64,000 nt of DNA from Gekko japonicus (lineage: Eukaryota): positions 90,080 to 154,079 of the forward strand of contig NW_015160909.1 of assembly GCF_001447785.1 (NCBI RefSeq). The letters run 5' to 3'. The position numbers and the translations under genes are program-made. This document shows, piece after piece, positions 18,031-50,029 of the stretch. The notes beneath the pieces are model-generated. The model saw only the letters and a program-made list of their open reading frames with translations. It ran no database searches and was not told where the DNA came from. Position 1 is the stretch's first letter, and each line of letters starts with the position of its first letter.

Positions 18031-19641
18031 CAGGGGTCATTTCCTAGAAAAAGAGCTAGGGGGACTCATTAGCATAACTCATTAGCATATGCCACACCCC
18101 CTGACATCACCGGAGGTGTGTCATAAGGCCACACCCCCTGACATCACTGGAAGTGTTTGACTTCACAACAACCTTGAAAGGGAGGACAGCATGCCACTGT
18201 GAAATCTTATGCTCCCCAAAATGGATTCTAGAATCCTGTCTGTATTAAGAGCCCCAAATGGCACCCCTTACATTCATTTTTGTCAATATTTTATCCTAAC
18301 AAGGATTTCCACTAGAACATTTTCAAAAGTGGAATCCTAGAGAGAATTACCTTCGAGAGATATCCCAGAACTGTTTGCAAAAGGCACACTGTTGGCAGAT
18401 ATTGGAACAGAACATCCTACCCAGAACTATCAAAACAGAGATTCATCACTTCCCCTCTATGAAACCTTTAAAAAAAGATGCCATACTCCACATGTATCTG
18501 GGAGACTGACAATGCAGAGGCGAGGGGGTACCAAAATGGCGCCCCACCTGAGCACACGTGCCTTCGTCGTACGGCAAGGCAACGCCGGGTCAGCCCGTGC
18601 CATCTGGTGGGGAGCTTCTCCCTCCACCTCGGCTTTGCTCAAGGGCTCCGCCACTCAATGTCAAGCCAAAGGGAAGTGGGCCAGGCGCACGGGGCCAGGT
18701 GCAGCTCGGGCTTGCCACCGGCAGAAGTCGCTCGCTCGCTCGTGCACATCAGTGAAGGGTGCCTGCCGCCTCTTCTCATCTCTACCCCTCGCTCCCCGAG
18801 AGCCGATGCAGCAGAGGGGCTGAGGAGGAGCTGCTGATGGGCGGGAAGGCGCGAGCGAGCACGACGGAGCCAGCTTGCCTGGCTGGCTGGCTGGCTGGCT
18901 CGCCCGCCTGCCTTTCTTTGCCTCTGGCCAGGCAGGCTGGAGCGCTCGCCTCCTCTCAGGCAGCAGCATGGAGGGGAGCAAGCCCAGCTCCTCGCCCAGC
19001 AGCCGGGACGAGGCCAGCCCCAGCACCAACGCCTGCTTCCAGGCGAAACTGGCCGACAAGGCGCTGAGCAGCCCCGGTGGCAACGGCAGCCTCAAGGAGC
19101 TCCGGCTGCCACTGTGACGCGGCCAGTCCAGACTCAAAGCAACACCCCAAACAAGAACTTCCACCCCCCCACTGCACAGCCATCGCCCAACAACACCCCA
19201 GGCTGCCCTGCAAAGCCCCCTCCCTCCCTCCGGTGGCTCTCTGCAAAGCCCCGCAGGCGGGCTCCCCCACAGATCCCCGGCCAGGCGATGCACCCCGAGG
19301 CGCGCCCGGAGACCCCCCGGCTCCGAAGCGAGGCCCAAGTGCCTTGTCGCCGCAGCCCGACTCCAGCCTGACGGCCCCACCACAAGCCTGGCAGCTGCCA
19401 AGGGGCGGAGGGGGGAGGAGGAGGAGCCATGGAGAGGCCATCTTGGCACGGGGCACCAGCCTCCACGCTTGTGGACCAAAAAGTGAGGAGCGGCCGAGGG
19501 GCCACCATCTCGGTGATGGTGCTTTCGGGCAAGGGGAAGCGAGGCGGCCGGAAGCAGGGGGCGGGGCTTCGTCGTGTGCCCCGCCCCCCGCACCTCACCC
19601 GGGGGATGGTGTCCCCTCGCGTCCCCCCCAAATGACCCCTG
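18031..19641 (+). mobile_element. non-autonomous hAT element with ~1.35 kb of heterologous, largely GC-rich cargo (Pack-type)
   Basis: TIR caggggtcattt/aaatgacccctg; perfect 8-bp TSD atttggtg (18023-18030, 19642-19649); ends shared with 62218-62637. Confidence 0.92.
18968..19117 (+). pseudogene. probable captured first coding exon fragment of an unidentified host gene (MEGSKPSSSP...KELRLPL)
   Basis: Kozak-like gcagcATGG; 46 of 49 codons end in G/C; preceded by GC-rich UTR-like sequence; lies inside the hAT. Confidence 0.6.
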
Positions 19642-19847
19642 ATTTGGTGTCATCCACAATGTTGCTACCTCACTGTGACTTTGAGTCATTTCTAGATGTT
19701 AGATTACATGAATATGGGAGATCTACTTTCCTCCATTTAGACAACTGTATTAGAGGGGTAGGCAATCACGTAGGGGCCAAAAACCCAACATTGTTTACCT
19801 GTGAAGAAACCGGTACACTGAAACATAATGGAGAGGGTAGAGAGATG

Positions 19848-20324
19848 TGTTAGTTAGCCAAACATACTGGGAGCAAGCTGAGGCCCTCTGGCACTGCTAG
19901 GGCCTCAGGAGCTAGAACCAGTCCCTTAAGAGGAGAACTGAACCCTGTGTGAAGAGCAAATTGGTCTTGCATGCCACTTTCAATGCTGGAGGTTGTCTAT
20001 GCCTGGATGTAGAGAGAACATTACTAGATATGTATGAAAAGAGGAGGAGGACTCAATAGAATGATAAAATGTGTGAGATCCAAGCTGTTTCTAGACCCTA
20101 TTATAATGAGTACGATATGAATTATTCTCATTGTATTCCCCCACTCCCTGTTAAGTGCAATATTATGGATTGTAATGGGTCCCCCCCTATTCTTTGTGTT
20201 GACTGGTGTGAGAGTCCCTCCAGTCTCTCCAGCATGGCTCTGGCACCTAATGTACAAGACTGTTTGACCATTGAATGTTTTTGATGATTCCTAATAAAGC
20301 TGTACATCTTCTTCTTCAATAACA
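19848..20324 (+). mobile_element. possible solo LTR
   Basis: tgtta...taaca termini, TATA-like tataat, AATAAA ~30 nt before the end; degenerate TSD. Confidence 0.4.
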
Positions 20325-32141: not shown

Positions 32142-32159
32142 TACTTGAATATACATGTT

Positions 32160-32257
32160 ATAAGGACTGAAACTCAATAAATAGCTGGGCACACACTCAA
32201 TTGATACAAATTTTGTTTTAATAAGGACTGAAACTCAATAAATAGCTGGGCACACAC
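32160..32257. repeat. 37-bp direct duplication
   Basis: ataaggactgaaactcaataaatagctgggcacacac at 32160-32196 and 32221-32257. Confidence 0.9.
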
Positions 32258-35600: not shown

Positions 35601-35747
35601 ATTAAAGGACAGTCATGTCAATGGAACATGTATACAGTGTCACTTATATTTCAGCTCTCAGAATCTGCTTTGGGGAATTGGTCCCCAAGGATAGCCCCAT
35701 TAAAAGTCTTTGCCAGTGGGAAGGTTATACTACACCGCCTACCATTC

Positions 35748-36446
35748 TGTCTTGGGTCAGAGCAGACTCAGCCAAGACCAAGGAGATGAGACAGAAGCAC
35801 TAACCAGAAGCGTAAGTCAAGAGTTCAGTCCAAGAGGGAAGCCAGATGAGGGTCCAAGAAACAGAGTTCAAGCAGGTCCGAGAGGCATTGTCAAACAGGT
35901 CCGGGGTCAAAGCCAAAGGTTCAAGAGTAGCAGCCAGAAACAGGTCCAGATGGAGTGGTTGCACGTCTCCAGGAAGGTGACAAGTTGTTCCCACGCCTTT
36001 CCCCCTCTGAAACCCATCCTTTATTGGCAGCTCACAGCTGCATCTTGTTGCTTGCAAGAGCAGTGTCCATTAACTCCAGGTGTTCCTCTTTATCTGTCAG
36101 TCACTGGGCAGCAAGGCGTGGGCTCTGGCTCCTCTCGAGGAGGTCCAAGCATGCGCGCCTCCTCCTGCGTTCCCCTGGCTCTGGGGACAGAGGAGGCAAG
36201 ACAGCCTGTGAAGTTTCCCCACGATCTTGGGTTGCTGAGGCACCACCTCTCTGGGTTGTGTCTTCCGTGTTCCCAGTGCACATGGGGCTGGAGTGCCTGC
36301 TGTCCTCATCAACTGGGGCACTAGGACCTGCCTCTGCTGTCTCAGGGTTGTTAGGAGCATCAGCTGGCTGAGTTTCAGAGGTGTTGACAGGGCTGTTATC
36401 AGCATTAGCTGAGTGCTCTTCAGTTAAAGCAGAATGGCCCACGACA
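35748..36446 (-). mobile_element. Gypsy-type solo LTR (699 bp)
   Basis: TG...CA ends; IR tgtcttggg/cccacgaca; perfect 5-bp TSD cattc (35743-35747, 36447-36451). Confidence 0.88.
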
Positions 36447-37927
36447 CATTCAGCCCACTGCTCTGCCCCCTTTTCCCACCACATTTCCCACTCCAACCCC
36501 AAGGTGGCCTTAAACTGTTTTGAAAAGGCCTATGTTAATCCCAGAGTTTTGGGTGAATCCTAGTGTATTGTGCTGATGTGATAATGACATTGTTTCTGGT
36601 TCACATTAGAAGTGCTGTTGCAGTGTAAGCATGAAACTGATCAGATACACCTCTCACTATCTCCTGCCAGGTGGAAGTGCTAGGCTGGCTATCTTAATGA
36701 TAAGTAGGGTTGCCAGCACAAGGGTGCAGCTGATGAGTGGTGGGAGACAAAGAGTTCTGACCAAATGCTAGAGTGTTGCCAACAACATGCTGATGGCACT
36801 TCCCATTATATTATATTTGCATATCAGGATGCTGGCAGCCCCCCCCCCCCCAATTTCATCCCCATTTTCCTCCCACTGCTTAGCTGAATGGGGATGGGAA
36901 ATCAGCAACCCTAGTGTTCTACGTTTTTCTACACTATGATTTTTTAAAAAATTATCTATTTGATGCCAACATCCTGAGGGCATTAAGGTTCTTTGACTTG
37001 TGTGGCTAGCTGATAAACCACACAGTAAAACAATTATCCAGGCAGTAAAGGGTAACAAAAGAATGTATTCGAATAAAGGAACACCTAACAGCTCGTAGAT
37101 GTTCAATGTGTTACAGCCAGGAGCTTGCTTATATACTCTTCTTTCTCCTTCTCACATTATATCATCATTGACATCATTTAGACATGCTCAGTTCAGATTT
37201 CTTTGTCTGGTCAGTCATCAATCACATATTTGACACACAGGATGTTACTTGGCCACATCTCAACTCCTACAATGCAGGTGCAACACTCATTATGTTGATT
37301 TATATTTCTGTTCACTTCTTTTGGCTATCTTCCTAAATTCCTTTCACCTTCGAATGAACCCTCAGACTGAGTTGATTTTTAGTACAAAACTTAGATATTT
37401 TCATTTAAAATGGTTCTTTTACATTAATACATGCATATAAAAGTATAACAATATTCTTAAAGCATTTTATAAACTTATTTTCACTAAAAGGTATACAAAA
37501 TATGAAAACATATATCATTACAATGTCATTCTAAAGAATTAAACCCTTTACATGTCTCTAAGTGTTTCAAATTAGCCTATGGCATAAAGCTCTAGTAGAT
37601 GCATTGTATCTATCAGTCTTTATTTTGGTTCATCAGAATATTTTTACAAAATATTTAAACTTCCTTATTTTGTCAAGATATGTTATTTTACTTTAACTAG
37701 CAGGAGTCACCCTTTTATAATACAAGTTCTACATTTTTAATTGACCCTTTTAATTGGCTTCCAGGTGTGCATGATTTATTATTTTGTTTTCTTAAACCTT
37801 TTGGAATATCTCCCAACTTTATGCTTGTTAAACACTTAAAAGCACACAATAACTTATGGAATACCCTTTTAATTAGTTTCTTTAATTGACAGACCCATGA
37901 TTAATGACTTCTGTTTTGGCTGAATCT

Positions 37928-37928
<1 letters not shown>

Positions 37929-37961
<33 letters not shown>
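37929..37961. repeat. (CA)n microsatellite
   Basis: Directly visible. Confidence 0.95.
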
Positions 37962-37963
<2 letters not shown>

Positions 37964-38887
37964 CCAGCTCTTGGTCATTTTCTAATGTTTTGCTTGGTAG
38001 TTGTTATGGATCTTTGCCAGGTTCTGAGTGTGTAATGATTTCTCTTTAGGCAAGCATCCTTTTTGTCTTAAGCTGAATAACTTTCTATAGCAAAGCTTAA
38101 AATTAATAAAGGATAGTTGCTTTTACAAATATCTTATAAATATTCAGCCTTAAACATAATATAAAGTTCTAAAAACACAAACAATCAGATCAAGAGAAGG
38201 GATTTCTCTCTGTTACAGTATATAGCTGTCCTCTGTTTTACCCCAATTTTAGGCTTTGCTAACAACATCTTGATTAATTCCTTTGAAGTAAAAGGATGGA
38301 ATATCAATCTTTTAACTGACAATTAGTGTGGTGCTTTCACAACAGTCCAGTTCATGTAAGTGTCTATATAAACCAACAGAGTCTTTTCCTCTTTAAAACA
38401 GGTTGAAAAGGCAACCTAATAGACTCTAATAGTTCAATATGTTAGAGTATTCCAAACTCGAGGAAAGCCTCTTTGATGTTTCCTCATTTAAAATTACTGA
38501 AAAATCATAAACCACTACAATAAACTTTTCACCTTTCTTTGAAGTATAAGATTTCATCATAAATCTTGGACTCTGAGAATTCATGCCAATTAAGAAGGCT
38601 GACACAAGAACACCAGTTCAATAAAACTCAAACAATCCTTAGGAAAAACCTCTCTTGAGCCCGCTTGCGGGAAGGGCGGGGTATAAATGTAATGAAAATA
38701 AATAAATAAATTGTCAATTAAAAGTGATTTGAACCACCTGTCTTTATAAAGCTGTTTAGTGGTTTACACAGTTCACCAATTCTACTGGGAGAATCCCAAA
38801 GAATCTTTCCCCCCCCTCAAAGAGTCCTGGAATGCTAGCAATAATATATAGACAATCATTTGAACCCTGGGTATCCCCTACATATTT

Positions 38888-41800
38888 ATTTACTTCAACT
38901 TCTATCCCACCCTCCCCCACAAGCAAGCTCAGGGTGGGTCTCAACATTCTTAAAACCATACAGAATTATTTCAAACAGAATATGATAACTAAAACAGTTA
39001 TAAAAAGTTTGTACACATAAAAGCCTTAGAAGGCACCAGTTAAACAATTTACTGAACAGGATGAGGTTCCAGTTTAAACAGTTAAGGAGAAGCGGGTGGG
39101 TGAATAAGCAGCTAAGATGGACTATAATGCTGCTTGGCATAGCTAAACTAAGCAGAGAAGTGCAGGGCAGGGGAGAGCACTGTGGTTGAGCTGTCACCAC
39201 TTCAACCATAGGCCTGGTGGAACACCTCCGTTTTAAAGCCCCTGCGAAACTCAATACATCCCATAAGGCCCAGATCTCACTAGGGAGGGTGTTCCACCAG
39301 GCTGGCACCAGAGCTGAAAAGGCTCTGGCTCTTGTCAAGGCTAGGCAGACATCTTTGGGGCCAGTGACAACCAGTAGATGTGGAGTGGAAAAGCACAGGG
39401 CCCTTTGGGGCTGTATATATAGAGAGACAGTCCTGCAGTCCATATAGGGCTTTAAATGTAATAATCAAGACCTTGAACTTGACATGGAATTCAACTAGGA
39501 GCAATGCAGCTGGTGAAGCACCGGATGTGTGTGTGCTCTTAGGGGTGTCCCTGTAAGAACACATGCTGCTGCTTTTTGGGCCAGCTGCAGTTTTGGGCAA
39601 CTTTGTAGAGCAAATTACAGTAATCCAGCCTGGAGGTGACTGCTGCATGGAAAGGTAGGGGACCAGTTGCTTGACCTGCCACAGATGGAAAAAGGGAGAT
39701 CTCACAACTGCTGTGACCTGGGACTCCAGGAAATGTGAGGAATCCAGGACCACACCCAAACTCTTTATCACTGGCACAGGTATTAGCTGCACCCTGTCCA
39801 GTGTTGGGAGCTGGATCCCTGCCCCAGTCACTCCACAACCCAGGTACAGGATTTCCACCTTCATTTGGCTCTTCTTAAGCCATGCAGCCATGGCATTCAA
39901 ACCCTCAGTCAGAATGTCTAGGGTGGTATCTGGATGGCCATCCATCATCAGATACAGCTCAGTGTCATCAGCTTACTGATGACAACCCATCCCAAACTTT
40001 CAGACTATCTGGGCAAGGGGGCACATATAGATATAAAATAACATAGGGGAGAGGATCACCCCCTGGGAGATGCTGCATATACCAAAGGGTAATGTGGTGA
40101 TGTTCTCTCCCCAAGTGCTACCCTTTGTCCCTGACTGTGGAGAAATGAGACCAGCTACTGCAAAACTTTCCCACATATCCCTGGGTCAGTGAGGCAGTGG
40201 GTCAGGAGGTCATAATTGACCATGTCAAATGCTGTCGTTAGGTCTAATAACAACAACAGTACCAACCCATGCAGATGATACCAAAGATTGTCGGTGATGG
40301 TGACCAGTGCCATCTCCATCCCGTAAACAGGACAAAAGCTGGCCTGGAATAGGTCCAGGATAGAGGAATCTTCTAGGAAACCCTGGAGCTGTTTGGCTAC
40401 CGCTCTCTCAACTACATTACTCAGAAATGGAAAGTTTGAGATTGGGCGGTAGTTGGCTGGATCTAAAGGGTCCAGGGATGGTTGATGGTTGTCATGGGTC
40501 TGTTGTCTGTTGAGGCTGACTACTCCTCAGATGAGGAAGAGGCATGGAGCAACCCAGCCTCCTCTGGAGTCAGCCCAGAAGAGGAACCCTTAACAGCACC
40601 TGAGGGAGAAGAAGCCCCAGCAGCTGCACAGGAGGTGCAGCCAGAGGGAGAGACTGATCCAGAGCCTGGCCCAGCACCCCCAGGCGGAGACACCCCGAGG
40701 CCAGAATCCCCACCTAGTTCTCCTGAGTGCCCCAGACGCAGGGCATGCCAGCAGCTGAATGTGCAAGAGTGAAGGAAGAGTGCCAGACTGCAGCTCTTGC
40801 AAAGACAATGTGAGGGGCTGTGAGTCTTGGCAGATTGACTCCCAGGGAAGGGAGGACCTGGTCATAAACACCCCCATGTACCTGCCTCAGCACGGAAGCA
40901 ACTGTGCATGCTTCCACCTGATCCTGGCTGTCAGCCTCTGCTCCTTGCTCATAGCTCCTGCAACCTTTGACTGATTTTATGGCTTTCTGACCTTCGGCTC
41001 TGTTGCTTGACTTTCGGACTGCGTATCCATTTTCCAGTGCATGGTATCCATGAAGAACGGCTGACCCAGCACAATGATATTCACTGGGGGGGGGGCATAT
41101 TCCATCATTGCCAGCTTTCACTAGCCATTATAGACATGGGCCCAAGAGGCAAGTGGTGGGCTTCACAACATGCAGTATCCTGTCAACCTCCCTGGGAGAG
41201 CTGGCTGAAGCGGTCCAGTCTTGAACACAGCCAAGGGGCCTCTAGTTTTTGTACTGTATCAATAGTGGCTGGCAGGTTGTGGCAGAGTGACACGATTTCA
41301 TCTGCAAAATAGCTTCCAGAAAGCCTCACAGCTTATTAGCCAATTTAGTATCTTTCTGGGGTCCCTCTGAGAGGGATGTAAGTGACTGAATTACTTTAAA
41401 CAATTGAGCCAGGTGAGAACTTGCAGATGCAACAGAAGCTGCATAGAATTCCTTCTTTGTGGCTTTCACTGCCACCTCATAGACTTTCATAAATTTCCAA
41501 TAAGATGCTCTTGCAGCTCCAACAAGAGTCCGCTGCCACACTCGCTCCAGCCATCTCAGCTCCCATTTCATCTTTTGAAGCTCCTCAGTATACCAGGGAA
41601 CTAGTCTGGCATGGGGACTGAGAGGGCAACAGGGAGCAATCTTGTCAATGGCTTCAGAGAGACGATCATGCCAGTCCTCTACCAGCACATCTAAAGAGTC
41701 ACCATGAGGCACTGGATCCTGCAAAGCATCCTGGAATCCAGTGGGATCCATCAGTCCCACGGGTGAGCATAAATTAGCTCACCACCTAAACAAGGAGGCA
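38888..41800 (-). mobile_element. L2 LINE (3' UTR, RT and linker), interrupted by the solo LTR at 40490-41073
   Basis: TSRLDYCNLL, KFKVLIITFKAL, ADDTEL, RAFSALVPAWWNTLP, PWYTEEL motifs. Confidence 0.88.
40490..41073 (+). mobile_element. Gypsy-type solo LTR (584 bp)
   Basis: tgtcatgggtc...gacccagcaca; TSD atggt/atgat; TATA-like cataaa at ~40863; splits an L2. Confidence 0.8.
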
Positions 41801-45340: not shown

Positions 45341-47475
45341 TTTCATGGAGAGCAAAGACTGAAAGTACTGTGTCATACTTTGTGTGTTTCTTTTTTTCGG
45401 ATAACTGCTGCATTCCTGATGACTCGCCTGTCATGACTTTATAACTCCTTTGGCCAAAATGTTGTTAGCTTTGGTTTCAGTAATAATATAGCTTACAATT
45501 GAAGAATTTTGTCACAAGGCTTTTTTCTTGCTCACCAGCTGTATACAACGAAAAATGCCAAGATTTGTCCAAACCCATATGTTATCTTTGCGGTTTTATC
45601 ATTAAAACTTCTAGGAAATGATAAAATGCGAAGGAAAAAAGTTATCTACAAAGGTATCACCTTTTGCAGCACTCATGGAAGATCAAATGGATCTGTGGAT
45701 GTAACAGAAAGTAAATGGTGTGTGGAGGAGACAATTAAAAAGCAGACTAGAAAATAAAATAGGAACTGTACAAAGGGATGTGGAAAAGGTAATATTAGAT
45801 GTGAGAGGATTTTTAAAAGAGCTTTCACAAACTGGGTGTAAAATGTGCTAGTCGTTTTGAAAAATGAATCTTCCTCACTTCAAATGAAAGAAACAGCAAT
45901 GCTTCCTATGCTTGTTGCTGCTGAAAAATGGCATTCAAATATAACCAGCATGATCTTTGAGTCTGGACAGAAAATAAGAGAAGCCAATGTTGGATCAGGC
46001 CAATGGCCTATCCAGTCCAACACTCTGTCACACAGTAGCCAAAAATACCAGGTGTCACCGGGAAGTCCAGCAGTGGGGCCAGGACATTAGAAGCCCTCCC
46101 ACTATTAACCCCCCAAGCACCAAGAATACAGAGCATCACTTGCCCCAGAGTCTCTATCTATACCTTGTGGCTAATAGCCACCGATGGACCTCTGCTCCAT
46201 ATGCTTATCTAATTCCCTCTTGAAGCCGTCCATGTTTGTAGCTGCCACCACTTCCTGTGGCAGTGAATTCCATGTGTTAATCACTCTTTGGGTAAAGAAG
46301 TACTTCCTTTTATTTGTTCTAACCCGACCACTCAGCAATTTCATGGAGTGCCCAAGAGTTCTTGTATTGTGAGAAAGGGAGAAAAGTTCTCTACCTGCTC
46401 TTTCCCATGCATAATCTTATAAACCTCGATCATGTCACCCCTCAGCCCTCGTTTCTCCAAGCTAAGTTGAATCAACAGCCCTCGGCCTTTGCGGCCATTG
46501 GGCTGGATAAACAAATTTGCCACCCAGATGAGAGAGGCAGGCAGTCAGTTTGGGCACCAACAGGCCCATACGGGTATCTGGGGAGGAGGAGCCATAGGAT
46601 TTATAAGTCCGGCCCCTCCCCTGCTCAGGCAGCAGTTGTGCCAAGTCGTCGACCAGGGAGGAGCTCTGTCGAGTGGTGCGGTCATTGGCCTACCAGCGGG
46701 GGCTGTGCAGCTTGGGAGCTTCTCGTCTGGCCGGCGCTCGGTCGGGAGGCTTCGAGGGACGGAGTGTCCCTGCGGCCGGGAGCAGCAGTGCGTGTCACGG
46801 GAGCGGCTGACTGGTCGTCATCATCGGCGTGCCTAGCAGCTGCAGCAGCACAACGGCGGGATGGTGATTGCGGCAGCCACGGCGGACGAGGACACAGAGG
46901 GAGCGCATCGGGATGGCGAGGCATCTGGAGTCGACGATGTGGGCCAGTCAGGGCCTTTTGGCTGTTTGGGCAGAGCGGCGGCGGGCCCGCCTGTACAGGC
47001 GTCCTGCCTTCTGCGGGGCCTAGTTCGGTGGCACAGAGGGGGAAGGCCCTAAGGGGTAGAGGTCTGAGGATGGTGGTAGCAGCTCTGTGGGGGTTAGGCC
47101 GCTAGCTGGGTCTACCACCATCTTGGCTTGCTTGGCAGGGTCAGGCCACTGCCCTTTTCTGGGTCTGGGGCGACTGGGGGCTCCCTGCTGTGGGGAAATT
47201 TTTTCCTTGCCTCTGCAGCCTTTCCCACCCCCCATCCATCCCATCCTCCTTGCGGAGAAGTTGCTCTGGGTTGTCCGTGGGGGTTAGTGGGACTTGGGGA
47301 GCCTCTAATAGCCGGCAGGCCAAGCCTGTAGACGTTACGTATTAGTCACCGAGTGGCAGCCATCTTGGGTGTGGTTTGGCGGCCATTTTGTGTTTCCCCA
47401 GGGCAGTGGCCATTTTGTCTTCAGGGGCTTGGTGGCCATTTTGTCACACCTCAGTAATTAGTTTCACTTTTAGTT

Positions 47476-48834
47476 ATGGCTCCTAAGAAGGGTTCTGGTC
47501 ATTCAAAAGGCAAACAGCCGGCTCCTAAGCCAGCACCTAAGCGACTTGCTCCGGCGTTGTCTTCATCTGATGACGAGGATGATGGTGTACAGCGGGCCAT
47601 TTTGGACCACTTGTTGACTGTGGAGTCGGCTACTGGAGTCTCCACTCCTCCTGTGCGGCCGCCTGGAGGGGCCCGGGGAAGGAAAGAAACTCAGGCAGCT
47701 GCCAACAAGCGATTTCAGGCTGAAGTGCAAACACATTTATCTATTATAGAGGGGCGTACTGCCACACCAGTGGTTGATATGGAAAAAGCCGTTGGAAGCC
47801 AGGATGGTGTGCCTTCAGCAGCTAAGCCTTCAGGGCAGCAGAGCCCAGCACAGCCTGTGGCTGACTCTTCTTAGGCAGATGGTAAGTGTTGCACACACCA
47901 CACTGGGTGCGCCTGGCCTTGGGGCCACCCTGAATCTGAGGGGTTGGCTCCTTCCACTCCCAGCACTCCAGTGTGCAGCCCTGGGTGTGGGCAGGCCGGC
48001 CGCAACATTCCTCGTAAGTTGTCATCATCGGCACAGTGCTGCGCTGTTAATACACCATGGTGGGGTGGCCCCTCGCCATGTGGCGTGTCTTATGCAGGGG
48101 CTCCTGCCGCTGCCCTCCCTTTTGGGGACCTGGCACTGCCTTTGGGCGATCACCTGCTTTTGGCTACCAGGGATAAGATTTGTAGGGGTGAGTTTGTAGA
48201 TGTCTTTCCTCTACTGTACCGTGAATTGGACAAGAAGGAGAAGGAGGAGTTGGAGGAACCGGATAAGGAAAAGTATAGGGGAATGAGGGTGGATAAGACT
48301 TGGGCCAATTGGGTTGCTGGCTTTTTGATATATGTGGGCGTACTTTCTAAAGCGCAGCCCTATAGGGCAGCCGCGTTTTTCCGATACTTTGATATCCTTC
48401 ATAAGGGTTATACTGGCTTTACCGGCCCCGCTTGGCTTCAGTATGATGAGGAGTATAGGATGCGGGCAGCCATGAACCCTTCTTTGCGTTGGGACCAGAT
48501 CCACCCTCATCTATGCTTACAGGTGATGACCTCTTCTAGGCCAAATACTGGTGATGGTTCTCATAGCGGCCATTTAGTAGAACATGCGTTCACGCCTCTC
48601 GGTCCCTGCCAAGCGGTTCAACCCTGCCAGATTTGTTGGGAATTTGGGGCACAGGGAGTGTGCAACCATAAGGCATGCCAATATCGGCATGAGTGTCCTT
48701 TGTGCACAGACCCCCATCCCTTCTCCGCATGTTTCCGTGGAAAGCCTCAGCGAGGTCATAGGCGGCCAGAGGCAGGAGGTCCCGGGCAGGGGCATGGAAA
48801 GGGGGCCAACACCCAAAAGGTTGAAAGTGCTTAG
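47476..48834 (+). pseudogene. Ngaro-type gag-like ORF1 (disrupted)
   Basis: MAPKK start; WLQYDEEYRMRAAMNPSLRWD; C-terminal zinc finger CWEF...C...C.YRHEC..C...H. Confidence 0.85.
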
Positions 48835-49153
48835 GAAGTGGTTGCGCAGTTACCCTTGCCATAAGGGCAGTTTGTATTTGTTGGAATGTTTTTCTCAAGG
48901 TTTTCGCATTCCCTTTCAAGGTGTGAGGGGCCCTTTCATGGCATGCAACCTCCAGTCCTTAAAGGGTATGGAAAGCGTCGTTAGGGGCAAGATTGTGAAG
49001 GAGTTGAACGAAGGAAGGGTCCTGGGTCCTTTCCCTTCCCCTCCTGTTCCTAACCTCCGCGTTTCCCCTTTGGGCATTGTGCCCAAAAAAGCACCCAGGC
49101 AGTTTAGGTTGATTCACCACTTGTTCTATCCGAAGGGTGGCTCTGTTAATGAT
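48800..49153 (+). pseudogene. reverse transcriptase N-terminus, truncated
   Basis: GFRIPF...KELNEGRVLGPF...VSPLGIVPKK...FRLIHHL.YPKGGSVND; overlaps the gag end, as is typical of YR elements. Confidence 0.88.
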
Positions 49154-49478
49154 AGTAACAATTGATTGGCACAGTAATAAGTTAATACGGAGAACAAGAA
49201 AAACTGTGAAAAAGTGACGCTTAATATATGTCTTTAAAGAATCATAGAAAAGTGAACAAAAATATTATACATAATCATAGAAAAATATAGAAAAATATAT
49301 TGATGGTGATCTCCAGAATGTCTTGCCGTTTCGAAGGAAGATCTTCTTCTGAACAAAGATGTAGGACCTTATAAATACAACAATATACATCTTTGAAAGT
49401 CTGGAGATTATATAACTTGTTATAATATAATTAATAAAAAGAGTGGACCCTTACAAACAATGTCTCTCAGTAATTCAT

Positions 49479-50029
49479 ATCTGTGGGCACAGTTTTGTTT
49501 TTTGGGCGGCACACCATGCCAGACAAACAGCGATTTTGTCTCGGCCAGTGGGCTACGGTTGAGTGGTGGGGCCGTATGGGCTTACAGTGGTCTGGCCTGC
49601 TACACTTGTTATTTCAGGAAATGGTCGGCCCTCCACCACAGATTCTTGTTCTACATCTGGGTGGAAACAATTTGGGCTTAGTGAAAAGCCTTAATAATCC
49701 AAGCGCGGGATGATTTCCAAGCGATCCGCAGGCAGTGGCTGGAGACACTCTTAATTTGGTCAGCCATCGTACCTCGTAGAGTTTGGCGGGGAGCGATGAG
49801 TCCTTTGGCTATTGACAAGGCTCGCAGGAAGGCAAACCGAGAATTACAAAGAATCTTGGAGGGTGGCTTGGGCATGTTTCTGCCTCACCGAAATATTCAC
49901 CCGTGGTGGGCCGAGCTGTACCGGCAGGATGGGGTCCACCTGTCTGAACTGGGCATTGACATCTTTCTGGACAACCTACGGCAAGGGCTGTGGGTGGCCT
50001 TGGGCCTCCCGATGGGTGCGAAGGCCTAA
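49479..50029 (+). pseudogene. SGNH/GDSL hydrolase ORF (frameshifted)
   Basis: Block I ICGHSFVFWA, block III LHLGGNN, block V DGVHLS. Confidence 0.85.

Follow-up and report, generated by a model that had tools for sequence, protein, structure and literature searches.

How do two long terminal repeats (LTRs) that look unalike come to encode peptides of the same design? The question is raised by a 64,000-nucleotide stretch of the Gekko japonicus genome (contig NW_015160909.1, positions 90,080 to 154,079; hereafter the window), which carries two solo LTRs, A and B, with unique 3' (U3) regions that are open in the same register and contain an arginine-rich motif resembling the RRSARL core of HMGN proteins. 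An earlier note on this DNA had offered two explanations, an accessory gene or a C-terminal extension of pol. As set out below, in a squamate clade of chromodomain-bearing Gypsy elements the U3 frame is almost certainly a C-terminal tail of integrase, which pol reaches by reading through the polypurine tract (PPT) into the 3' LTR; this is observed for family A and its relatives and inferred for family B. The copies of A and B in the window are themselves dead, decayed remnants.

The open U3 frame in two solo LTRs

Both LTRs lie at the positions first given for them, with TG..CA ends and 5-bp target-site duplications (Table 1), that of LTR A being a perfect match; LINE-like (long interspersed element) frames flank LTR B. 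Genome-wide, a first look gave 316 candidates for family A and 1030 for family B. For each family 40 were scored (81-90% identical for A, 87-91% for B) and 30 of these were fetched, leaving 28 A copies (two truncated ones omitted) and 30 B copies (one duplicate LTR omitted) for individual comparison. With truncated copies omitted, TG..CA LTRs with a 5-bp duplication of at most one mismatch were found in 24/26 copies of A and 24/26 of B. At one locus (L047, G000:C14689), two family-B LTRs stand in tandem with a near-identical upstream flank, which marks a local genomic duplication and not a short element.

The two LTRs had been described as lacking obvious nucleotide similarity. This impression has to be corrected, as global alignment of A with B at the DNA level scores 206, against 135 +/- 13 for local shuffles, and none of the 200 shuffles reached that value. 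By this comparison the two families are distant homologs, and thus not two independent inventions.

Read from the second base of the LTR, the frame of A stays open over 114 codons and that of B over 110, the latter interrupted once by a TGA at codon 94; the counts given in the earlier note (113 and 109) were each one short. Among the copies, the base-2 frame is the only one of the six that has no stop common to half the copies across U3, and its first common stop falls at codon 138 in the 28 A copies and at codon 111 in the 30 B copies. The stops that interrupt the window copies sit in columns with a CpG-decay pattern (10/28 A copies, 8/30 B copies). Because the terminal TGA of LTR A is also a product of copy decay, the family frame runs 23 codons further, to a family-wide stop at 36034-36032 on the minus strand. 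The frame ends before a TATA-like box, and in A the motif does not stand at the frame's end. In the window, the motif of LTR A is degraded to RSQSPRL, other A copies reading R-R-[RQW]-S-A-[RC]-L; an exact R[RK]SARL occurs in 3/28 A copies and 19/30 B copies, and the surrounding columns are well kept in both families.

One account of such a frame is that chance, or some demand of the promoter, keeps a GC-rich U3 open, and that pol merely runs to the first stop without any selected function. The single-copy probabilities of openness, which are not tiny (0.021 for A and, with one stop allowed, 0.067 for B, from 5000 dinucleotide shuffles each), lend this account some support. The evidence on selection is given below.

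Reading of pol through the polypurine tract

The genome was searched with a Tf2-type SH3 module, giving 150 scored places. The frame can be followed in a young element, L093 (G000:C507), which has LTRs 99.6% identical and a pol frame of 1304 codons. Its Pfam domains follow the order protease (PR), reverse transcriptase (RT), RNase H (RH), integrase (IN), SH3 and chromodomain, with the chromodomain (PF00385) upstream of the PPT. The frame crosses the PPT in the same T-GTC register as in the window LTRs and continues for 108 codons within the 3' LTR, where it encodes an acidic spacer followed by an SP-plus-arginine block at its end. A frame of 1304 amino acids was present in 26/41 equal-scoring rows of the L093 family, a count that assembly collapse may inflate. 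The family itself (about 40 further places) is very young, with LTRs 98.7-99.6% identical in the four elements examined and copies that are perhaps partly collapsed.

For family A, the same arrangement was found with the family's own LTR. At L146, located by a junction-pattern search, an LTR 80.6% identical to the window copy stands directly behind integrase, chromodomain and PPT, in frame, and a target duplication surrounds the whole deleted element. Together with seven more loci, this makes eight places where a family-A LTR directly follows a chromovirus integrase, chromodomain and PPT, three of which (L146, L207, L209) are in frame throughout. Of the chromovirus features, the pol domain order with a C-terminal chromodomain was found in L093, and the integrase C-terminus and chromodomain upstream of family-A LTRs. 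Of the two options in the earlier note, the C-terminal extension of pol is the one borne out: pol reads through the PPT at three family-A loci, and intact relatives have no stop on the way.

Several observations weigh against this reading of the frame. At five of the eight family-A junctions the frame is shifted within the G-rich PPT region, although three of the five are identical in the junction and may represent a single event; among 24 junction-bearing elements, the motif lies in the pol frame in 13 and is shifted in 8. A second chromovirus clade in the same genome has no tail, nor do the fish and frog relatives. The transcripts described in the next section speak for transcription over the pol-U3 junction and not for translation. 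Finally, the interior of family B was not found by junction, primer-site or integrase searches. Since the link for this family is an alignment of its motif to the tail of a Podarcis element (gap-free, 15/32 identical), its status as a pol tail is inferred only. Gapped-pattern searches for PPT-LTR junctions returned none for A or B, further patterns giving three solo LTRs only, and when proteins were searched with the B peptide for longer fusions, 0/1206 candidates qualified, which is weak evidence.

Three observations concern the junction itself. The length of the PPT G-run varies between copies, often shifting the tail out of frame (L110, L131, L203-L206, L208), and this run is a slippage-prone site inside a coding frame. 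Eight shifted, decayed copies (L114, L125-L128, L144, L145, L152) share the same other frame with different breakpoints, which amounts to a skew. In the second chromovirus clade (L061-L090), pol mostly stops just before the PPT, with no LTR tail, which makes it a natural control.

Selection, transcription and distribution of the tail

Within families A and B, variation is neutral: it is flat over codon positions, and indels are multiples of three in only 4/13 and 1/8 cases, respectively. Such neutrality is expected of copies that were dead once inserted. Comparison between families, in contrast, reveals purifying selection on the last ~35 codons, where third positions vary most. Of 25 sister elements 24 were extracted, and 21 were aligned on DNA alone (L093, L146 and L148 being left out as too distant). 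Identity over the last 36 codons of this alignment is 0.64/0.68/0.47 at codon positions 1/2/3, against 0.55/0.54/0.52 after the stop. Reads placed on L093 tell a similar story for the basic block, in which 12/15 listed variants are synonymous versus 25% of possible changes, an excess with a probability of about 1e-5 by hand calculation, though transition bias and common ancestry of the variants weaken this figure. The corresponding counts are 5/11 for the spacer and 24/28 for the best-supported pol rows; the single indel listed within the in-frame region is 3 nt long, and the two past the stop are 1 nt each. In nine motif blocks, the proportion of nonsynonymous differences (pN) is below that of synonymous ones (pS) in 36/36 pairs (27/36 and 11/36 in the shifted frames). 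Because this test takes the motif as its anchor and compares pairs that lack independence, reliance is placed on the sister alignment and the read variants instead. Codon-level constraint is accordingly present between families.

These results leave little room for an open frame without selected function. Such a frame would be consistent with the neutral variation inside A and B and with a spacer of variable length and weak constraint, but the former is expected of dead copies in any case. Moreover, the excess of third-position variation is confined to the coding block and gone after the stop, the block variants in reads are mostly synonymous, and the motif recurs in another lizard lineage, Podarcis. 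Chance or promoter-driven openness is therefore considered very improbable.

Transcription of the junction is directly visible. In 2/3 runs of one study, RNA-seq reads fall in every one of the 30 bins of L093 and also span the pol-U3 junction; they come from both strands about equally, and no splice joints are listed. Self-priming is a group trait of sushi/Tf1-type chromoviruses, and the primer site of L093, L165 and L166 is complementary to sequence immediately behind a TATA-like box, at the start of the repeat (R) region; for A and B, the genome yielded no 5' junction that would contain such a site. The start of R consequently lies downstream of the U3 frame, so that a solo LTR would be unable to make the peptide from its own promoter. 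Since both LTRs receive a copy of U3, each solo LTR would hold the tail in silent form, ahead of the site where its own transcripts start.

The transcripts also bear on the other option of the earlier note, a separate accessory gene in U3 with its own ATG at codon 2, expressed from a spliced or read-through RNA. HIV nef and MMTV sag (of the human immunodeficiency and mouse mammary tumour viruses) are coding sequences that overlap U3 in this manner, as separate genes on spliced RNAs. The codon-2 ATG is present in B, L093, most sister families and Podarcis, and automatic gene models start at it. However, the squamate frame is fused to pol with no stop between them, the ATG lies inside the terminal inverted repeat and occurs in only 10/28 A copies, the frame is closed upstream of the TATA-like box and of the deduced start site, and the RNA reads offer no splice joints. 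An accessory gene is thus very unlikely, and the frame is better taken as part of pol.

The tail is not confined to the gecko. Among 78 pol homologs, a Podarcis pol (P0006) ends in a chromodomain, GDGVM, an acidic spacer, SP and PRRSARL; 4/14 other members of its cluster end alike, the remainder not reaching or including the tail. RRSARL is also retained in a second Podarcis family, where the spacer differs. The pol homolog P0037 carries a similar acidic tail that is rich in arginine at its end, and a cobra model shows the same pol-LTR junction. The combination of acidic spacer and motif was found in none of the fish and frog relatives examined in this set. A motif profile run against 1.84 billion proteins gave nine matches, seven of them LTR-tail-like models (from Podarcis, Gekko kuhli and others); the two fish repeat proteins among them were judged chance. 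The tail sequences matched nothing in Pfam, gave no usable match in the ESM Atlas and had one chance match among PDB sequences (E 0.1). On integrase trees, the long-tailed elements cluster with support of 99/99 (46 rows) and 93/89 (27 rows); the RRSARL types (Podarcis, A) and the Glu/Asp/Asn types stand on separate branches, the order of which is not resolved. In addition, the sister clade (L114-L128, L144-L160) has a second conserved end motif, R-R-S-[LF]-S-P-[ED]-[FY]-stop, which is absent from the A, B and Podarcis tails.

Several public lizard gene models start with LTR tail peptides (P0101, P0098, P0100, P0102-P0104, P0107, P0108, P0111, P0112). These models, including an NLRC5-like one, are probably annotation artefacts. 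Host exonization was considered for the gecko NLRC5-like model and rejected, because a second gecko's model is without the peptide. A pol tail explains the long open frames of lizard solo LTRs that gene predictors make into false exons.

The features of the two LTRs are collected in Table 1. Elsewhere in the window, frames at 47458-50029 resemble a DIRS/tyrosine-recombinase retroelement, with a gag-like part and the start of an RT. An island rich in GC and CpG, in which long frames overlap on the two strands, occupies 18300-19850, and two identical 37-nt copies, 61 bases apart and starting near TGTTATAAGG, lie at 32156-32257, perhaps marking another small LTR.

Table 1. Positions of the two solo LTRs and their parts within the window.
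Feature	Position	Strand	Remarks
Solo LTR, family A, Tf1/sushi-type chromovirus (Ty3/Gypsy), decayed	35748..36446	-	TG..CA ends; reads 36446->35748 from TGTCGTGG to CCCAAGACA
Target-site duplication GAATG (5 bp), 5' side of LTR A	36447..36451	-	
Target-site duplication GAATG (5 bp), 3' side of LTR A	35743..35747	-	
U3 frame of family A, integrase C-terminal tail remnant	36032..36445	-	Window copy broken by stop at 36103-36101
Conserved SP + arginine-rich block of A, predicted helix	36101..36187	-	Degraded RRSARL-type core at 36133-36113
A-rich hexamer directly past the family stop, TATA-like position	36020..36025	-	Putative role, from position; equivalent place in L093
Solo LTR, family B, decayed	40490..41073	+	Inside LINE reverse-transcriptase remnant (minus strand); reads from TGTCATGG to CCCAGCACA
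Target-site duplication ATGGT of LTR B	40485..40489	+	Copy ATGAT at 41074-41078
U3 frame of family B, 110 codons + stop, putative integrase tail	40491..40823	+	Broken at 40770-40772
Conserved SP + arginine-rich block of B	40719..40805	+	RKSARL at 40773-40790
TATA-like CATAAA, 3' of B frame	40863..40868	+	Putative role, from position

Possible functions and known systems

The tail consists of two parts. The spacer (73-86 residues) is acidic and proline-rich, with a net charge of -12 to -19, and the basic block (29 residues) carries +7 to +10. AlphaFold2 predicts a disordered linker followed by a helix of 26-28 residues that spans the RRSARL position, with a confidence score (pLDDT) of 81-96. 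Pol runs through the integrase core, the GPY/F-SH3 module, the chromodomain and the PPT, and then ~110-140 codons into the 3' LTR. After protease cleavage, the tail would stay on the mature integrase. The chromodomain would read methylated H3K9, and the three aromatic cage residues appear to be present in L093 (cage as defined in PMC3605345). On its flexible linker, the basic block may then grip the same or a neighbouring nucleosome, either at the H2A-H2B acidic patch or on nucleosomal DNA. An integrase tail whose arginine-rich predicted helix tethers the integration complex to nucleosomes is the reading favoured here as fairly probable; the tethering role taken by itself is favoured by a narrow margin.

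A more specific form of this idea concerns the acidic patch. The core reads RRSARL or RKSARL in A, B and Podarcis. The segment RRSAR binds the acidic patch in HMGN2 (PMC12487698), and similar motifs are functional in tardigrade Dsup and yeast Dot5 (PMC13347269). The likeness to HMGN drawn in the earlier note is partial, reaching A, B and Podarcis at most; it does not extend to the sister clade, in which the Ser is not kept, or to the trailing SA. Indeed, this part of the reading faces several difficulties. The Ser of RRSARL is Glu or Asp in most sister families and Asn in L093, and modelling of HMGN2 has phosphorylated Ser24 repelled by the acidic patch (PMC12487698). The SA that completes RRSARLSA is absent from the tails, and the predicted long helix would be unlike the short segments resolved for HMGN and Dsup. 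Neither the motif profile search nor Pfam matched any HMGN protein. AlphaFold 3 is reported to misplace HMGN2 on the nucleosome (PMC12487698). Binding of the acidic patch by the tail is thus offered as a tentative hypothesis from sequence likeness. Equally speculative is the picture of a lizard and snake chromovirus integrase as a two-handed nucleosome reader, with the chromodomain for methylated H3K9 and an LTR-encoded, HMGN-like arginine anchor for the acidic patch. Such a reader would be a case of convergence with the HMGN proteins, Dsup, Dot5 and the Gag of foamy virus.

Alternatively, the tail may be a real part of the integrase whose basic helix serves as a nuclear import signal or as a general DNA- or RNA-binding arginine-rich motif, the match to HMGN being incidental. 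The helix of HIV Rev is a nucleic-acid-binding motif of this kind. It is the arginines, the hydrophobic positions and the length of the block that are constant across families, and not the Ser, and the predicted helix would suit such a role; Ty1 is known to carry nuclear localization signals (NLSs) at the C-terminus of its integrase, and such signals have been proposed for CRM elements (PMC3605345). Nevertheless, RRSARL is exact in A, in B and in two families from Podarcis, all with spacers that can no longer be aligned, and this is more specific than an NLS needs. Furthermore, a proline precedes RRSARL in Podarcis, as in HMGN2 and Dsup, and would break a helix. Import or unspecific nucleic-acid binding is accordingly regarded as possible without being probable, and nucleosome tethering is retained as the preferred role.

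For the question of how vertebrate LTR retrotransposons choose their insertion sites, the tail provides a short, conserved integrase module in which the residue governing HMGN binding varies naturally. If the acidic-patch hypothesis were true, the tail would be the first acidic-patch binder from a retrotransposon, and the Ser, Glu and Asn forms found in nature would adjust targeting from family to family. The literature searched yielded no vertebrate chromovirus LTR tail and no HMGN-like retrotransposon motif; Repbase, Dfam, supplements and subscription papers, which may mention long frames, were outside its scope. In the passages searched of a review on LTR structure, no open reading frame is mentioned (PMC3601003), and the string "retrotranspos" does not occur in a review on acidic-patch tethering (PMC9040877).

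Compared with HMGN (RRSARLSA), Dsup and Dot5, the squamate elements likewise place RRSARL or RKSARL inside a disordered acidic region in A, B and Podarcis; they differ from HMGN in the missing SA, the loss of Ser in the sister clade, a core within a predicted long helix, and the lack of a profile match. Foamy virus Gag, LANA of Kaposi's sarcoma-associated herpesvirus and IE1 of cytomegalovirus use an arginine anchor to tether their genomes to chromatin via the acidic patch, and tethering by foamy virus Gag shapes integration sites (PMC9040877). The candidate described here would likewise be an arginine anchor on a mobile-element protein, but it sits on the integrase and is encoded in the LTR. 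With the sushi/Tf1-type elements of fish and frogs, the squamate elements share the PR-RT-RH-IN-SH3-Chromo order, the 5-bp duplication, a primer site complementary to the R region of the LTR and, in many cases, a pol frame that crosses the PPT in the same T-GTC register. In the fish and frog elements, however, the frames end at or shortly past the PPT or continue in unrelated model sequence. The closest parallel is found in plants, in which chromoviruses of CRM group A encode a CR motif in the 3' LTR that replaces the chromodomain (PMC3059260, PMC3605345). As in these elements, the gecko pol continues into the 3' LTR and has a conserved motif at its end. Unlike them, the squamate elements, which belong to a vertebrate lineage, keep the chromodomain upstream of the PPT, and the LTR adds a second module composed of an acidic spacer and a predicted basic helix. 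Coding use of the 3' LTR by pol has thus arisen in vertebrates as well as in the CRM elements of plants.

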